A stretch of 5,250 bases of DNA from a virus (lineage: Duplodnaviria; Heunggongvirae; Uroviricota; Caudoviricetes), in the IMG/VR virus record IMGVR_UViG_2609459846_000012; one strand, given 5' to 3'. Positions 1 to 4,431 of this stretch are shown piece after piece. A program made the translations under genes and the position numbers. Position 1 is the stretch's first letter, and every line of letters starts with the position of its first letter. The notes under the pieces are model-generated. The model worked only from the letters and a program-made list of their open reading frames with translations. It ran no database searches and was not told the origin of the DNA.

Positions 1-1
1 T

Positions 2-169
2 ATACGTGAAAAAGAATGTCAGCAACTTACAGGCCTGAGCCGCTCATGTCGGTATCGCCTGGAGAAGACCGGACAATTCCCATCACGGCGTAAACTCGGC
101 GGTCGTTCCGTTGGCTGGTCTTTATCCGAAGTTCTGGCATGGAAGGACAGCCGCGAGGCAGTTCACTAA
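2..169 (+). CDS. alpA: AlpA-family prophage transcriptional regulator/excisionase, 5'-truncated by window edge
   Basis: Frame-2 translation IREKECQQLTGLSRSCRYRLEKTGQFPSRRKLGGRSVGWSLSEVLAWKDSREAVH* (stop at 167-169). The LTGLSRS..YRLEK.GQFP...LGGRSVGW motif is the helix-turn-helix signature of the AlpA/Phage_AlpA family as I recall it. Not in the ORF track because the start lies upstream of the window. Confidence 0.8.
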   Translation: MREKECQQLTGLSRSCRYRLEKTGQFPSRRKLGGRSVGWSLSEVLAWKDSREAVH

Positions 170-194: not shown

Positions 195-430
195 CCCATC
201 CACTAACACAGAGATCTAACCATGAATACTGGATATACGCCCGAACAGGGGCGGGGCTTCGTTCGTCCTGGTGAAACTAAAAAGCCATGTTATCGGGTAT
301 TTTCAGGCATAAAAAAAGCGGCCCCGATAAGGAACCGCCTTTCTGAACAATTAACCTGCTGCGAAAAAAATGGATCAGTGCAGGGGAATTATATCAACCG
401 TGTGGTGAAGCGCCACTATTGCCGGATAAC

Positions 431-463
431 AAGCAAAACAAAGGCGACCGCAAAAGGGTCGCC
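431..463 (-). terminator. Rho-independent terminator for the leftward RHH operon
   Basis: On the minus strand: GGCGACC-CTTTTGC-GGTCGCC (7-bp perfect GC-rich stem, 7-nt loop) followed directly by TTTGTTTTGCTT; lies 67 nt downstream of the minus-strand ORF ending at 530. Confidence 0.55.
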
Positions 464-529
464 AGTGGGAACAAGGGAAAACAAAAGCATCGCCAACAAT
501 GCCACATTTGCGGCTGGTGGGCAATGCAA

Positions 530-718
530 TCAGTCTGGTTCAGTTCGTTGCCATACCTGCAATGAGCGCTTTTCCCTGTACTCTTTAAGGAATTGCTCAA
601 GGGCAAAAGCACATGGCGCGAATCTTTCTGATTCATGCTCTATCTTTCTGCGCCGTCTTTTCCGTGTCGGTGATAATGTTTTGGTCAATTCTTTATCGGT
701 CATTGTGTTGTCCTGCAT
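530..718 (-). CDS. hypothetical small basic protein (57-62 aa), second gene of leftward operon
   Basis: ORF-track ORF MQDNTMTDKELTKTLSPTRKRRRRKIEHESERFAPCAFALEQFLKEYREKRSLQVWQRTEPD. The internal ATG (MTDKEL, position 703) has a better Shine-Dalgarno (AGGA, 7-nt spacer) than the first ATG. Followed by the intrinsic terminator. No recognisable family. Confidence 0.4.
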   Translation of the reverse strand: MQDNTMTDKELTKTLSPTRKRRRRKIEHESERFAPCAFALEQFLKEYREKRSLQVWQRTEPD

Positions 719-760
719 AGCAATGCGCCGTAATACCTTACACCACGGCGCTGGTGATGG

Positions 761-940
761 TTATTCCTGCTCTTTGGCCTTGCGACGCTGGCGGTATTCA
801 ACTTCTCGCTTTAATGCTGCTGTTACAAACTGCCCTGTACTTTCACCAGGCATTTTTACCGCCTCAACATTGTTCATAACTTCATGCGGAACCCTTGCCG
901 CAACTGTTTGTGATTTTGCGTTTACTGCTTTTGTTGCCAT
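761..940 (-). CDS. ribbon-helix-helix (CopG/Arc/MetJ-like) DNA-binding protein, 59 aa
   Basis: Hand-translated minus-strand ORF (below the ORF-track size cutoff): MATKAVNAKSQTVAARVPHEVMNNVEAVKMPGESTGQFVTAALKREVEYRQRRKAKEQE*. Predicted beta-strand (TVAARVPHEV), helix A, G-x-S/T turn (PGESTG), helix B fits the RHH fold pattern. SD-like AAGGGG about 7 nt upstream of the ATG. Divergent from the replication operon. Confidence 0.6.
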   Translation of the reverse strand: MATKAVNAKSQTVAARVPHEVMNNVEAVKMPGESTGQFVTAALKREVEYRQRRKAKEQE

Positions 941-989
941 GTTGTGTACCCCTTACAAAAAACAAATGCAGTATGCAGGAAAAAAAATA

Positions 990-1043
990 AGTGTTCAACA
1001 CTTGACGTGTTTAACACCAGAGCTTAAATTGGTGTTCAACACC
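990..1043. promoter_or_regulatory. divergent promoter/operator region with three palindromic operator-like sites
   Basis: AGTGTTCAACACT (990-1002), GTGTTTAACAC (1007-1017), GGTGTTCAACACC (1031-1043). Rightward sigma70-like promoter: -35 TTGACG (1002-1007), 17-bp spacer, -10 TAAATT (1025-1030). Leftward promoter candidate on the minus strand: -35 TTGAAC (within palindrome 1), 17-bp spacer, -10 CATACT (complement of 970-975). Confidence 0.5.
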
Positions 1044-1139
1044 TTACTGATGCAAGGTGCAGAAACGACGAAACCCGGCAGTGCGCTAACACTAACCGGG
1101 CTTCTAACCACCAACGATAGAAAGCGTATCGAGGTAGCT

Positions 1140-1346
1140 ATGAGAAATTATACCAGACACCCGCAAGGGCGGGACTCGTACAACCTGAATAAATACATCT
1201 GGCGTTTTATCGCCCTGAGCACGGCACAACCGCGCGTGATTACCATTGAGGCCACCAGCGAACAGGAAGCGCGTCAGCAATCTCCTGATGGCTGCGTGAT
1301 GGTATTCGCTGCCCGTATTCGTCAGGGGGTACGCCATGTGCAATAA
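1140..1346 (+). CDS. small phage protein, possibly Icd-like (host cell division inhibitor-like) family, 68 aa
   Basis: In-frame ATG inside the spurious 374-aa ORF with SD GAGG upstream: MRNYTRHPQGRDSYNLNKYIWRFIALSTAQPRVITIEATSEQEARQQSPDGCVMVFAARIRQGVRHVQ. The W.F.A....ATSE.EAR....V.VFAAR pattern matches my recollection of Icd-like small proteins annotated beside P4-family primases; the family call is from memory and unverified. Confidence 0.45.
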   Translation: MRNYTRHPQGRDSYNLNKYIWRFIALSTAQPRVITIEATSEQEARQQSPDGCVMVFAARIRQGVRHVQ

Positions 1347-1596
1347 CACCCGTCCGGACGCAGCCGCCGAAGCCATCAAAACGCTGATGCACGCGCTGAT
1401 TGATATTTCTGTTATCGCAGACAAGGCGCATAAGCGCGCCACCAGCGAAACAGAATATGCCGGGGCTTTCGTTCCTCACTCACTGGCTGTTATGCAACTT
1501 AGTGCGGATATGGCGCTGAATGAGGCTAAAGCCATCCTGATTGCTGATTGTGAAAATGGGGGGGGGTTATGCGTGATGATCGTTTTAATTCCCTGA
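1336..1596 (+). CDS. hypothetical protein, 86 aa
   Basis: ORF-track ORF; SD AGGGGG 6 nt upstream of the ATG; overlaps the previous ORF by 11 nt (translational coupling). C-terminus crosses a G9 homopolymer (1558-1566). Confidence 0.5.
   Translation: MCNNTRPDAAAEAIKTLMHALIDISVIADKAHKRATSETEYAGAFVPHSLAVMQLSADMALNEAKAILIADCENGGGLCVMIVLIP
1558..1566 (+). repeat. G9 homopolymer tract at the junction of two overlapping ORFs
   Basis: Nine consecutive G seen directly; encodes NGGG near the end of ORF 1336..1596 and acts as SD for ORF 1569..1802. Confidence 0.9.
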
Positions 1597-1802
1597 AACA
1601 GGAATTTTCCGGCGTTCCTGATGATGCGGCTGATGCGCTTTCGTCAATGCCAGAGCTTATTAGAGCGGCTTTTTTCTTACTTTCCACGAGAGAATATAAA
1701 TCAACGGGGCTTGATGTACTGAATATCGCCGCCGATTATGCGGAATATGTGGCAGAGGCGCGTTATAGAAGAAAATTTCCTGAGGATGTAAGCCATGCGT
1801 GA
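1569..1802 (+). CDS. hypothetical protein, 77 aa
   Basis: ORF-track ORF; the G9 tract immediately upstream serves as SD; overlaps the upstream ORF by 28 nt and the downstream ORF by 8 nt (ATGCGTGA). Confidence 0.5.
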   Translation: MRDDRFNSLKQEFSGVPDDAADALSSMPELIRAAFFLLSTREYKSTGLDVLNIAADYAEYVAEARYRRKFPEDVSHA

Positions 1803-2028
1803 TATTTACCACGAAACAATAGACCGCGCATTTCTTGCACTTTCTCACAGTGAAAACATGCTGGAAATATTGCGCATATGGCTTGAAACACTTGGCGACA
1901 ATGAACGCGACAAACAAAAATCAAGAATTGCCACGGCATTAATAACGCTTCTTGAGCCTGTAATAATGGAACTGCAAGAAATAGATCTATTGCACGACAG
2001 ATATAAAGAACAGCACACCGGAGAATAA
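1795..2028 (+). CDS. hypothetical protein, 77 aa, predicted mostly helical
   Basis: ORF-track ORF; SD GAGGA 8 nt upstream; start overlaps the upstream stop. Confidence 0.5.
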   Translation: MRDIYHETIDRAFLALSHSENMLEILRIWLETLGDNERDKQKSRIATALITLLEPVIMELQEIDLLHDRYKEQHTGE

Positions 2029-4144: not shown

Positions 4145-4158
4145 ACTTATGGAATAAC

Positions 4159-4386
4159 TGTTCACCACTGTTCACCCTGTTATAAATATCTTTTATATCA
4201 GTACATTATAGGGTGAACAGTTATTTGTGAACTGTTCACCAAACTATTCACTGTTCACCTTTTTGATTATTTATTGAGCTTTAAGGGTGAACAGTGGTGA
4301 ACAGTTGGTGAATAGTTTTTGTGAAACTGTTCACCCCTTAACATTATGAATAAAAAGGGAAAATATCAAAAGGTGAACAGGTGAAG
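4159..4386. repeat. origin of replication: iteron array of TGTTCACC octamers in both orientations, interspersed with AT-rich tracts
   Basis: Forward TGTTCACC at 4159, 4169, 4233, 4252, 4328; reverse GGTGAACA at 4212, 4286, 4296, 4372; degenerate copies at 4177, 4245, 4307, 4380. Adjacent copies are spaced 10 bp apart (4159/4169; 4286/4296). AT-rich stretches at 4177-4210, 4260-4284, 4336-4370, 4389-4418. The octamer is identical to the type I iteron bound by P4 alpha in ori and crr, as I recall it. Confidence 0.8.
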
Positions 4387-4431
4387 GGTTAAAATGCAAA
4401 AATTTTATTTTATTGCTGTGAGGTAAAGCCT

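Follow-up and report, generated by a model that had tools for sequence, protein, structure and literature searches.

The control region of an E. coli phage satellite

The window analysed here, a 5,250-nt stretch of the IMG/VR virus record IMGVR_UViG_2609459846_000012, is the regulatory and replication region of an Escherichia coli capsid-forming phage-inducible chromosomal island (cf-PICI), a phage satellite. A leftward transcription unit encodes a 59-aa ribbon-helix-helix (RHH) protein, followed by a small arginine-rich protein (open reading frame 2, ORF2), and ends at an intrinsic terminator; a divergent rightward operon runs from an icd-like gene to the primase gene, and three copies of an 11-bp palindrome lie over the two promoters between them (Table 1). 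The founding paper on islands of this kind left the global repressor unclear, the activator AlpA being the only known regulator (PMC6092414). Judging from the sequence comparisons reported below, the first leftward gene probably encodes the missing DNA-binding repressor of this common E. coli island.

The window matches E. coli chromosomes with up to 100% identity. In strain E200086, the gene order is integrase, AlpA-family regulator, cassette region, Icd-like, several small ORFs, DUF4222, primase, SSB and ProQ/FinO, beyond which lie the major capsid, prohead protease, portal, head-tail connector and HNH genes. A layout with capsid genes is of the cf-PICI type (10.1101/2022.09.08.507074), and the island was assigned on this gene order, i.e., int, alpA, the leftward cassette and icd-like, then DUF4222, primase, SSB and the capsid genes. 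The same control module is carried by EcCICFT073, the model Gram-negative PICI, and sequence resembling positions 400-1140 was present in 1,496 of 5,426 complete E. coli genomes. When 50,697 phage records were searched with tblastn, the Icd-like protein matched a single 16.5-kb 'induced prophage' record, and neither the RHH protein nor ORF2 had a match.

Related loci (numbered with the prefix L) were compared in two sets. The genome set comprised 35 loci from an enterobacterial scan with one genome per species, none of them labelled E. coli, together with 14 annotated E. coli loci. The independent set consisted of 80 IMG/VR loci picked solely via the Icd-like gene, 74 of which carried the RHH gene.

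Table 1. Features of the control region, with positions counted from the first letter of the window; operators, promoters, hairpins and terminators are predicted.
Feature	Position	Strand	Details
RHH gene, 59 aa	761..940	-	ATG start, AAGGGG upstream; 'YlcI/YnfO family protein' in the Prokaryotic Genome Annotation Pipeline (PGAP)
Operator O1, GTGTTCAACAC	991..1001		overlaps the -35 of the leftward promoter P_L
Operator O2, GTGTTTAACAC	1007..1017		in the P_R spacer, abutting the P_R -35
Operator O3, GTGTTCAACAC	1032..1042		just past the P_R -10, over the expected transcription start
Promoter P_R	1002..1030	+	TTGACG, 17-nt spacer, TAAATT; promoter scan; sigma-70-like; icd-like to primase operon
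Promoter P_L	970..998	-	-35 TTGAAC (998-993), 17-nt spacer, -10 CATACT (975-970); read by eye
Structured leader of rightward operon	1074..1131	+	hairpins 1074-1100 and 1114-1131; RNAalifold, 28 loci
Long ORF, 374 aa, eta-like	222..1346	+	antisense through ORF2, RHH, both promoters, operators and leader; in frame into icd-like
icd-like gene, 68 aa, P4 Kil family	1140..1346	+	NF033153, E = 1e-19; nested at the end of the long ORF
ORF2, 57-aa arginine-rich protein	530..703	-	start at Met6; longer frame 530..718 (62 aa) with RKRRRRK
Terminator T1 of RHH-ORF2 transcript	433..463	-	terminator scan; stem 443-463, tail TTTGTTTTG
GC hairpin in the 57-nt RHH-ORF2 spacer	725..751	-	no U-tract; -17.7 kcal/mol, z only -1.0
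Terminator T2, leftward-only	311..339	-	stem 318-339, U7 tract 311-317
alpA, 3' part (Phage_AlpA)	1..169	+	Pfam PF05930, E = 8e-17; L001 annotation; convergent with the leftward cassette

A predicted RHH protein of the YlcI/YnfO family

The preliminary description of this DNA, made from its letters alone, had placed a 59-aa RHH gene on the minus strand, and family models and structure prediction bear this out. The product scores 59.7 bits against the NCBIfam model NF041551 (cutoff 30; E = 2.1e-16), with profile positions 1-42 fully covered, and it matches the PHROG family phrog_949 (E = 5e-22). The AlphaFold2 (AF2) model, based on 42 homologues, has a predicted local distance difference test score (pLDDT) of 80 and comprises an extended N-terminus, a helix at residues 19-28, a turn formed by G32-E33-S34 and a second helix at residues 35-58; the turn is invariant in the 42 homologues and fits the G-x-S/T/N inter-helix turn of RHH proteins. 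This predicted β-α-α topology of a 59-aa protein resembles solved RHH structures, and the closest structural matches include the antitoxins TacA2, Rv0298, CopA_SO, ParD and VapB12. Pfam returned nothing at E ≤ 1 save a chance match to Med10, and sequence searches of the PDB, with the single sequence and with a profile, gave chance matches only (DNA polymerase beta, designed nanocages). The RHH assignment thus rests on fold and not on sequence family, because the AF2 topology fits and sequence matches in Pfam and the PDB are absent. PADLOC had no match for RHH, ORF2 or Icd-like.

The 59-aa protein has no C-terminal toxin-neutralising extension: helix 2 runs to residue 58 of 59, and the tail is the conserved basic RQRRKAKEQE. 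In the E. coli loci L037, L038, L040 and L044-L048, its place is taken by a longer YlcI/YnfO variant of 101 aa, which continues C-terminally for about 44 residues beyond the N-terminal RHH domain and has its own operator types. The last codons, for KAKEQE, and the spacer before ORF2 are kept in both the short and the long form. In the RHH mRNA, the beginning of the leader and codons 2-6 form the two arms of a 13-nt inverted repeat (923-973, minus strand), with the Shine-Dalgarno sequence and AUG in the loop; this fold is not significantly better than those of shuffled sequences (z = -1.5).

No function of YlcI/YnfO proteins, and no link between RHH proteins and Gram-negative PICIs, was reported in the literature searched; YlcI/YnfO are listed only as accessory 'prophage-associated' genes of cf-PICIs (PMC13612085).

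Three operator-like sites over two divergent promoters

The palindrome GTGTT(C/T)AACAC (11 bp) occurs in three copies within 52 bp of the 199-bp region between the RHH and icd-like genes and at no other place in the window, where 0.21 matches are expected by chance; none of 200 shuffles reached the observed count. P_R was found by promoter scan, and an equivalent was detected independently in L015 and L028. P_L was not reported by the tool in its scan of the window; the -10, which most relatives have as TATACT (CAGTATAC when read from the plus strand), is conserved in nearly all loci at a distance of about 30 nt before the RHH start. The order RHH start, site, P_L -10, A-rich tract, P_R -35, site, P_R -10, site, leader hairpins is kept throughout the 35 + 14 loci of the genome set. 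A site at the O2 position was present in 40 of 45 loci, and in essentially every locus the locus-specific site is restricted to the divergent region. An operator-like sequence at the start codon of alpA in L001 (8582-8592; 10/11 match) was put down to chance, since in none of the other loci does the local operator type occur near alpA.

Across loci, the operators have the general form GTG-N5-CAC, in which the 5-bp core varies between loci and is equal at all copies within one locus. When O2 and O3 of one locus are compared, 9.9 of 11 bases agree on average; between loci that differ in the RHH β-strand, the mean is 6.1 of 11. Over about 110 loci, the core follows the β-strand residues 10-16 of the RHH protein, i.e., the DNA-reading element of RHH proteins. 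The strand SQT(V/L/I)AAR goes with the operator GTGTTCAACAC, SKKLEAR with GTGGCTGACAC, SQKLQAR with GTGGAGTCCAC, SKRFDVR with GTGTC(C/G)GACAC and SQLTTVR with GTGTGTTTCA; SQ(S/A)LK(S/A)R goes with GTGG(G/A)CCACAC. In the IMG/VR sample, the 74 RHH loci fall into 12 β-strand classes, each with its own operator type.

For 40 loci (the 14 from E. coli and 26 from the one-genome-per-species scan), operator identity correlated with β-strand identity (rho 0.605, Mantel p ≤ 0.0005); its correlations with AlpA identity (rho 0.08) and Icd-like identity (-0.085) in the same loci were not significant. Individual loci agree with this from both directions. L001, L037 and L049 have AlpA proteins that are 96% identical, yet represent three different operator/RHH types, and L003 and L006, whose RHH proteins are only 60-68% identical to that of the window, have kept both the SQT-AAR strand and the GTGTTCAACAC operator. 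Based on these patterns, the RHH protein most likely binds the three sites, represses P_R and autoregulates P_L.

Two further observations concern the cassette in other loci. L002 (Edwardsiella hoshinae NZ_BAUC01000010, 2800-3180) has an RHH protein with 100% identity to that of the window and the same three operators, amid neighbours that have diverged (AlpA 38%, Icd-like 51% and primase 43% identity); exchange of the repressor-operator cassette between genera is therefore indicated. In the IMG/VR loci L067 and L071-L073 (about 1170-1361, minus strand), the YlcI-type RHH is replaced by an unrelated leftward protein of 43-64 aa, which has an RHH-like pattern (...FHMRIVPELKEQFDNEASNDGVSLANWLKELG...) and a weak match to Pfam HicB (E = 0.009); three TGTGTACAC sites surround the same promoter in these loci.

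Downstream of P_R, the leader hairpins show compensatory changes in 11 of 13 predicted pairs across the 28 aligned loci, and the leader also has a conserved TCTAACCAC motif. Membership of the C4 or isrK families was rejected for this leader, as no covariance model of these families matched. The Rfam family SymR matched 1067-1139 on the minus strand below threshold (32.8 bits against a gathering score of 61); the region is not treated as a member of that family, and the match probably reflects the leader hairpins rather than homology.

A plus-strand frame maintained across the cassette

The plus-strand ORF of 374 aa that runs antisense through the whole cassette had been set aside as spurious in the preliminary description, a verdict that the comparison of loci overturns: its frame is maintained in both sets and in many genera, and it ends in a domain of the P4 Kil family. 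From a point beyond the RHH stop, it can be read without interruption into the downstream gene in 31 of 44 loci, which holds for neither of the other plus-strand frames in any of the 44. Over the intergenic region of about 190-200 bp, the ORF frame is free of stops in 29 of 39 loci, compared with 0 of 39 for the other frames, which average 5.2 and 5.8 stops; the corresponding counts in the IMG/VR sample are 68/74 against 1/74 and 0/74. The distance between the RHH start and the downstream start is 179, 188, 191, 194, 197 or 200 in 28 of 39 loci, and these lengths therefore keep the frame, since they differ by multiples of three. Within the RHH gene, the antisense frame is free of stops in 25 of 26 sequences dereplicated at 85% identity, where synonymous-codon resampling predicts 6.9-10.2, and in 73 of 74 sequences of the IMG/VR sample. 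The comparison of frames argues that the plus-strand reading frame is kept open by selection, both antisense to RHH and across the promoter region.

Relative to the stop codon of the plus-strand gene before it (alpA or a Bro/Ant gene), the first start codon of the long ORF ranges from 60 nt upstream to 53 nt downstream; on the 3' side of the ORF, the plus-strand genes overlap each other up to primase. Its last part, icd-like, is the first gene translated from P_R transcripts; outside this Icd-like end, the long ORF has no recognisable domain. PGAP treats the region 939-1346 and its relatives inconsistently: Icd-like is called with 66-68, 96 or 135 aa, the 66-68-aa versions being found in relatives of the window, the long ORF is called an incomplete pseudogene, and ORF2 is annotated in some genomes only.

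ORF2 and the leftward transcript

ORF2 and the plus-strand ORF share third codon positions, because of which codon-position periodicity is uninformative here; pN/pS (nonsynonymous relative to synonymous variation) and start-site conservation were used in its place. The ORF2 frame has the lowest pN/pS of the six (0.38), followed by the opposite-strand frame (0.49), and the others lie at 0.8-1.3. The second Met (window position 703) and its AGG Shine-Dalgarno sequence are kept in all 14 E. coli loci, the upstream ATG at 718 has been lost in most relatives, and indels among relatives are in frame (6 nt). Thus, the small arginine-rich frame of the preliminary description, with its RKRRRRK stretch, is retained, and its 62-aa start is not, since the conserved Met6 gives 57 aa. 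The minus-strand ORF at 394..636 (MNQKDSRHV...) is likewise open in E. coli loci; it was judged non-coding because of its pN/pS of about 0.8-1.1.

The ORF2 protein matches the PHROG family phrog_21027 (E = 1e-15), and AF2 predicts a disordered basic N-terminus and one helix, with a pLDDT of about 90 over the conserved ERFAPCAFALEQFLKEY core. No family in Pfam, NCBIfam or PADLOC, toxin and defence families included, matched ORF2; the preliminary description had recognised no toxin fold in the second protein. A HMMER profile search against 1.84 billion representatives gave nine matches, of which one (P0107) is a repeat artefact and about eight are genuine clusters, with no functional lead. A role of the arginine-rich segment in nucleic-acid binding is only a guess.

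The ORF2 hidden Markov model detected the gene in 14/14 E. coli loci and 60/80 IMG/VR loci, and in 0/35 RHH-bearing loci of the one-genome-per-species scan. Xenorhabdus and others have no second gene after RHH, whose stop is about 240 bp away from the alpA end, and in other non-E. coli loci unrelated small ORFs follow RHH. ORF2 follows both the 59-aa and the 101-aa RHH variant, and the identities of the two proteins are uncoupled: L041 has 100% identity in RHH and 63% in ORF2, and L037 has 44% and 82%, respectively. The two-gene operon proposed earlier therefore holds for E. coli-type islands (14/14) and not elsewhere, where RHH stands alone or with unrelated small ORFs. ORF2 is best described as a lineage-specific accessory gene of E. 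coli-type islands, co-transcribed with the repressor. L048 has an additional small ORF (1684-1857, minus strand), placed after RHH and before the ORF2 homologue; its C-terminal FALEAFL resembles the FALEQFL core of ORF2, and it may be a distant ORF2 paralogue.

The transcript ends at T1, an intrinsic terminator that was correctly recognised in the preliminary description by its 7-bp GC stem and T-tract. The stem has 6 GC pairs and folds at -15.1 kcal/mol (z = -4.5; 0 of 200 shuffles fold as well), 12 of the 14 E. coli loci have kept it, with its position and U-tract, and a compensatory stem variant replaces GGCGACC/GGTCGCC by GGCCACC/GGTGGCC, i.e., one G-C pair by C-G. In the spacer between RHH and ORF2, the GCGCC/GGCGC stem base of the hairpin is kept in all 14 E. 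coli loci.

Proposed mechanism and rival explanations

The suggestion that the RHH gene could be the repressor module of the element is strengthened by the three operators over both divergent promoters, whose core co-varies with the β-strand and not with AlpA or Icd-like. We consider it fairly probable that the cassette is the leftward maintenance ('immunity') unit of the PICI, in which RHH-operator repression is combined with escape by read-through of an eta-like ORF. In the resident island, a weak P_L would transcribe RHH, with ORF2 in E. coli-type islands, and the transcript would end at T1. RHH dimers would insert their β-ribbon (residues ~10-16, SQTVAAR) into the three GTG-N5-CAC sites: occupancy of O1 over the P_L -35 would autoregulate and limit RHH synthesis, and occupancy of O2 and O3 over the spacer and start of P_R would keep the replication operon from icd-like to primase off. 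The RHH N-terminus and the operators would behave as an exchangeable specificity cassette, resembling lambdoid immunity.

On induction, the helper phage would switch on alpA, whose product stimulates the promoter of its own gene and without which the island is not induced (PMC6092414). Rightward transcripts could then run on past alpA, as no plus-strand intrinsic terminator is evident and T1 and T2 are leftward-only. Translated along the long ORF, they would cross the cassette and the operators into the replication genes, and this read-through may both bypass the RHH repressor and interfere with it. More tentatively, we hypothesize that the overlooked 59-aa RHH protein is the master repressor of enterobacterial PICIs in general, including EcCICFT073 and the cf-PICIs, with at least 15-20 exchangeable 'immunity types', and that it is encoded antisense in a translated eta-like ORF, where AlpA-driven, ribosome-protected read-through would silence the cassette and express the replication genes; this wider version is possible, with the balance somewhat against it.

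Several points weigh against the repressor reading. The β-strand codons lie only 30-100 bp from the operators, and linkage or co-inheritance consequently contributes to the covariation; the opposite-strand ORF co-varies equally, because it is encoded by the same DNA. The β-strand class NKSQQLNARF goes with two operator variants, and L029 and L031, which have the common strand core QKIQA, differ at two operator positions. In the genome set, the long ORF is interrupted by a stop or a frame shift in about a quarter of the loci. Finally, published induction of EcCICFT073 was obtained by AlpA overexpression alone, with no repressor mentioned.

This last result would also suit a protein that uses the three sites as a Cro-like or AmrZ-like switch or activator during induction, quiescence following from the lack of AlpA alone, and so would the poor -35 of P_L and the position of O1 on it, whereas most relatives have a site over the transcription start. 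We regard such a role as quite unlikely: sites in the spacer and over the start of a near-consensus P_R have the geometry of repression, RHH regulators with promoter-overlapping tandem sites (Arc, Mnt, CopG, omega) are repressors, and the RHH gene is transcribed away from, and convergent with, the alpA-driven induced direction. The palindromes might instead be bound by AlpA, a host protein or the product of the long ORF, leaving the YlcI/YnfO protein an unrelated role, e.g., one linked to packaging. AlpA is indeed a DNA-binding activator acting in the region, the long ORF shares the DNA and hence co-varies with the operators as RHH does, and the YlcI/YnfO family, which has no known function, has its namesakes ylcI and ynfO beside terminase genes, which might suggest packaging. 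Such a binder is very improbable, given that AlpA and Icd-like identity do not follow operator type, that operator variation maps to the canonical DNA-reading strand of the predicted RHH, that a non-homologous protein with an RHH-like pattern stands at the same position with its own operators in four loci, and that only the Icd-like end of the long ORF contains a recognisable domain.

The remaining rivals concern ORF2. If its frame were a by-product of the plus-strand ORF, the leftward unit would be monocistronic with a long 3' untranslated region reaching to T1; the common third codon positions and the small pN/pS gap (0.38 vs 0.49), the omission of ORF2 by PGAP in many genomes, C-terminal tails that vary by frameshift-like changes and the RHH genes of other genera that lack a second gene would all be in keeping with this. 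The retention of the ATG and Shine-Dalgarno sequence in 14/14 loci, the in-frame indels, the conserved ERFAPCAFALEQFLKEY core with its confidently predicted helix, a terminator that comes after ORF2 and not after RHH, and divergent homologues (P0108, P0110) that retain the core despite DNA divergence make a non-coding ORF2 unlikely in our view. A type II toxin-antitoxin pair, with RHH as autoregulating antitoxin and ORF2 as the small basic toxin it neutralises, would account for the antitoxin-first order, the single transcript with one terminator and the antitoxins among the structural matches of RHH. This likeness, which had been raised earlier, is unsupported, because ORF2 is patchy (absent from the 35 one-genome-per-species RHH loci, undetected in 20 of 80 IMG/VR loci), is uncoupled from RHH in identity, the 59-aa and 101-aa forms pairing with the same ORF2, and belongs to no toxin or defence family, being predicted as a single helix, and because RHH lacks a C-terminal toxin-binding extension; a structured 57-nt spacer moreover divides the two genes. 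We regard it as extremely improbable.

Relation to known systems

The closest parallel to the nested arrangement is phage P4. There, eta is translated only on transcripts from the late promoter, of which details were reportedly given by Forti et al. in 1999. In P4, the 65-aa kil is the terminal part of the longer eta ORF, and eta begins beside vis, an AlpA homologue. P4 and the window thus both have an AlpA/Vis-family gene, a long ORF that begins at or just past the vis/alpA end and whose last 65-68 codons form the first gene from an internal promoter, and a primase operon. The NCBIfam model NF033153 (phage_ICD_like) matches P4 eta (ORF 8168..8812) at residues 161-208 (E = 1.4e-20) and the window ORF at residues 325-368 (E = 1.5e-18); BLASTP of the long ORF against P4 eta was not significant, with no similarity outside the Icd-like domain. 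The link between the two ORFs is accordingly drawn from the shared NCBIfam domain, the pairwise BLASTP being not significant. Translation of P4 eta from an upstream late promoter prevents termination (PMC10111431).

The immunity devices differ. P4, whose promoters in this region are PLL and PLE, has an immunity that acts by RNA (C4/CI), with C4, isrK and c4-a1b1 inside eta; the window, unlike P4, has a putative protein repressor gene and ORF2 on the opposite strand within the long ORF, and DNA operators at the internal promoter. In the P4 control, Rfam models recovered C4 (74.9 bits) and isrK (60.8 bits), while C4, isrK and c4-a1b1 (RF01695, RF01394, RF03163) gave no match over 900-1400 at E ≤ 10 or in the whole window at E ≤ 1, and nine related loci contained no C4-type RNA element at the gathering score. 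Since the nested Icd-like ORF is found in both and the RNA elements only in P4, the scaffold is shared and the immunity device appears to be different.

Arc and Mnt of P22, CopG and omega are RHH repressors of phage and plasmid control regions. The window protein has no detectable similarity to a Pfam RHH family or PDB chain, and, unlike these regulators, it is associated with three 11-bp GTG-N5-CAC units and is encoded antisense in another maintained ORF. YlcI of DLP12 and YnfO of Qin in E. coli K-12 belong to the same family, NF041551, as the window protein; their genes lie in the late region of defective lambdoid prophages, beside the terminase genes, and not in a divergent early-promoter context. 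In lambdoid cI-OR-cro regions (imm434, imm21), likewise, the DNA-reading part and the operators change together between conserved flanks, in discrete types; the window differs in having an RHH instead of a helix-turn-helix (HTH) protein, and no Cro counterpart was identified. In the PICIs of Gram-positive bacteria (SaPIs), the gene of the master repressor (Stl/Rpr) is likewise divergent from the satellite excision and replication operon and keeps the island quiescent (PMC6092414). Stl is a large HTH protein inactivated by a helper-phage protein, whereas the window encodes a 59-aa RHH protein; unlike in SaPIs, the other side is occupied by int and alpA, and AlpA is needed as an activator for induction.

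Additional features of the region

The second leftward terminator, T2, folds at -19.1 kcal/mol on the minus strand (z = -3.2), compared with -9.1 kcal/mol on the plus strand (z = +0.45), and in L047 and L048 a hairpin of the T2 type terminates ORF2. Between T1 and T2 (311-396, minus strand), there may be a leftward small RNA of about 70 nt, which would have an extended -10 TGATATAAT at 388-396 and end at T2, a strong terminator. About 160 E. coli genomes contain this region, which is conserved in L037, L038 and L049 and matches no Rfam family. On the plus strand, the alpA stop is followed directly by an all-GC hairpin of 7-8 bp without a U-tract (176-194; -18.5 kcal/mol, z = -3.5), which precedes the start of the long ORF. 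On the 3' side of the primase gene, positions 4150-4390 hold many direct and inverted copies of GTGAACAG(T), which probably form the iteron-type replication origin of the island; spurious Rfam microRNA matches arise because of these repeats.

Significance

Gram-negative PICIs and cf-PICIs are very common and carry virulence and defence genes between bacteria. A small RHH protein whose type-specific operators cover both divergent promoters offers a concrete candidate for their missing repressor. Both an RHH repressor/operator cassette and a P4-type nested ORF are known kinds of arrangement. Annotation pipelines handle the locus inconsistently, as seen in the Icd-like start, the pseudogene call for the long ORF and the frequent absence of ORF2. 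The operator/β-strand types would offer a natural data set for a 'recognition code' of RHH proteins, and they might explain the compatibility or exclusion of co-resident islands. The maintained plus-strand frame ties PICIs mechanistically to P4 eta/kil. If the proposal is true, selection keeps a frame open across an opposite-strand gene and a promoter-operator region, and the RNA immunity of P4 would have a protein-based replacement within the same nested-gene scaffold.

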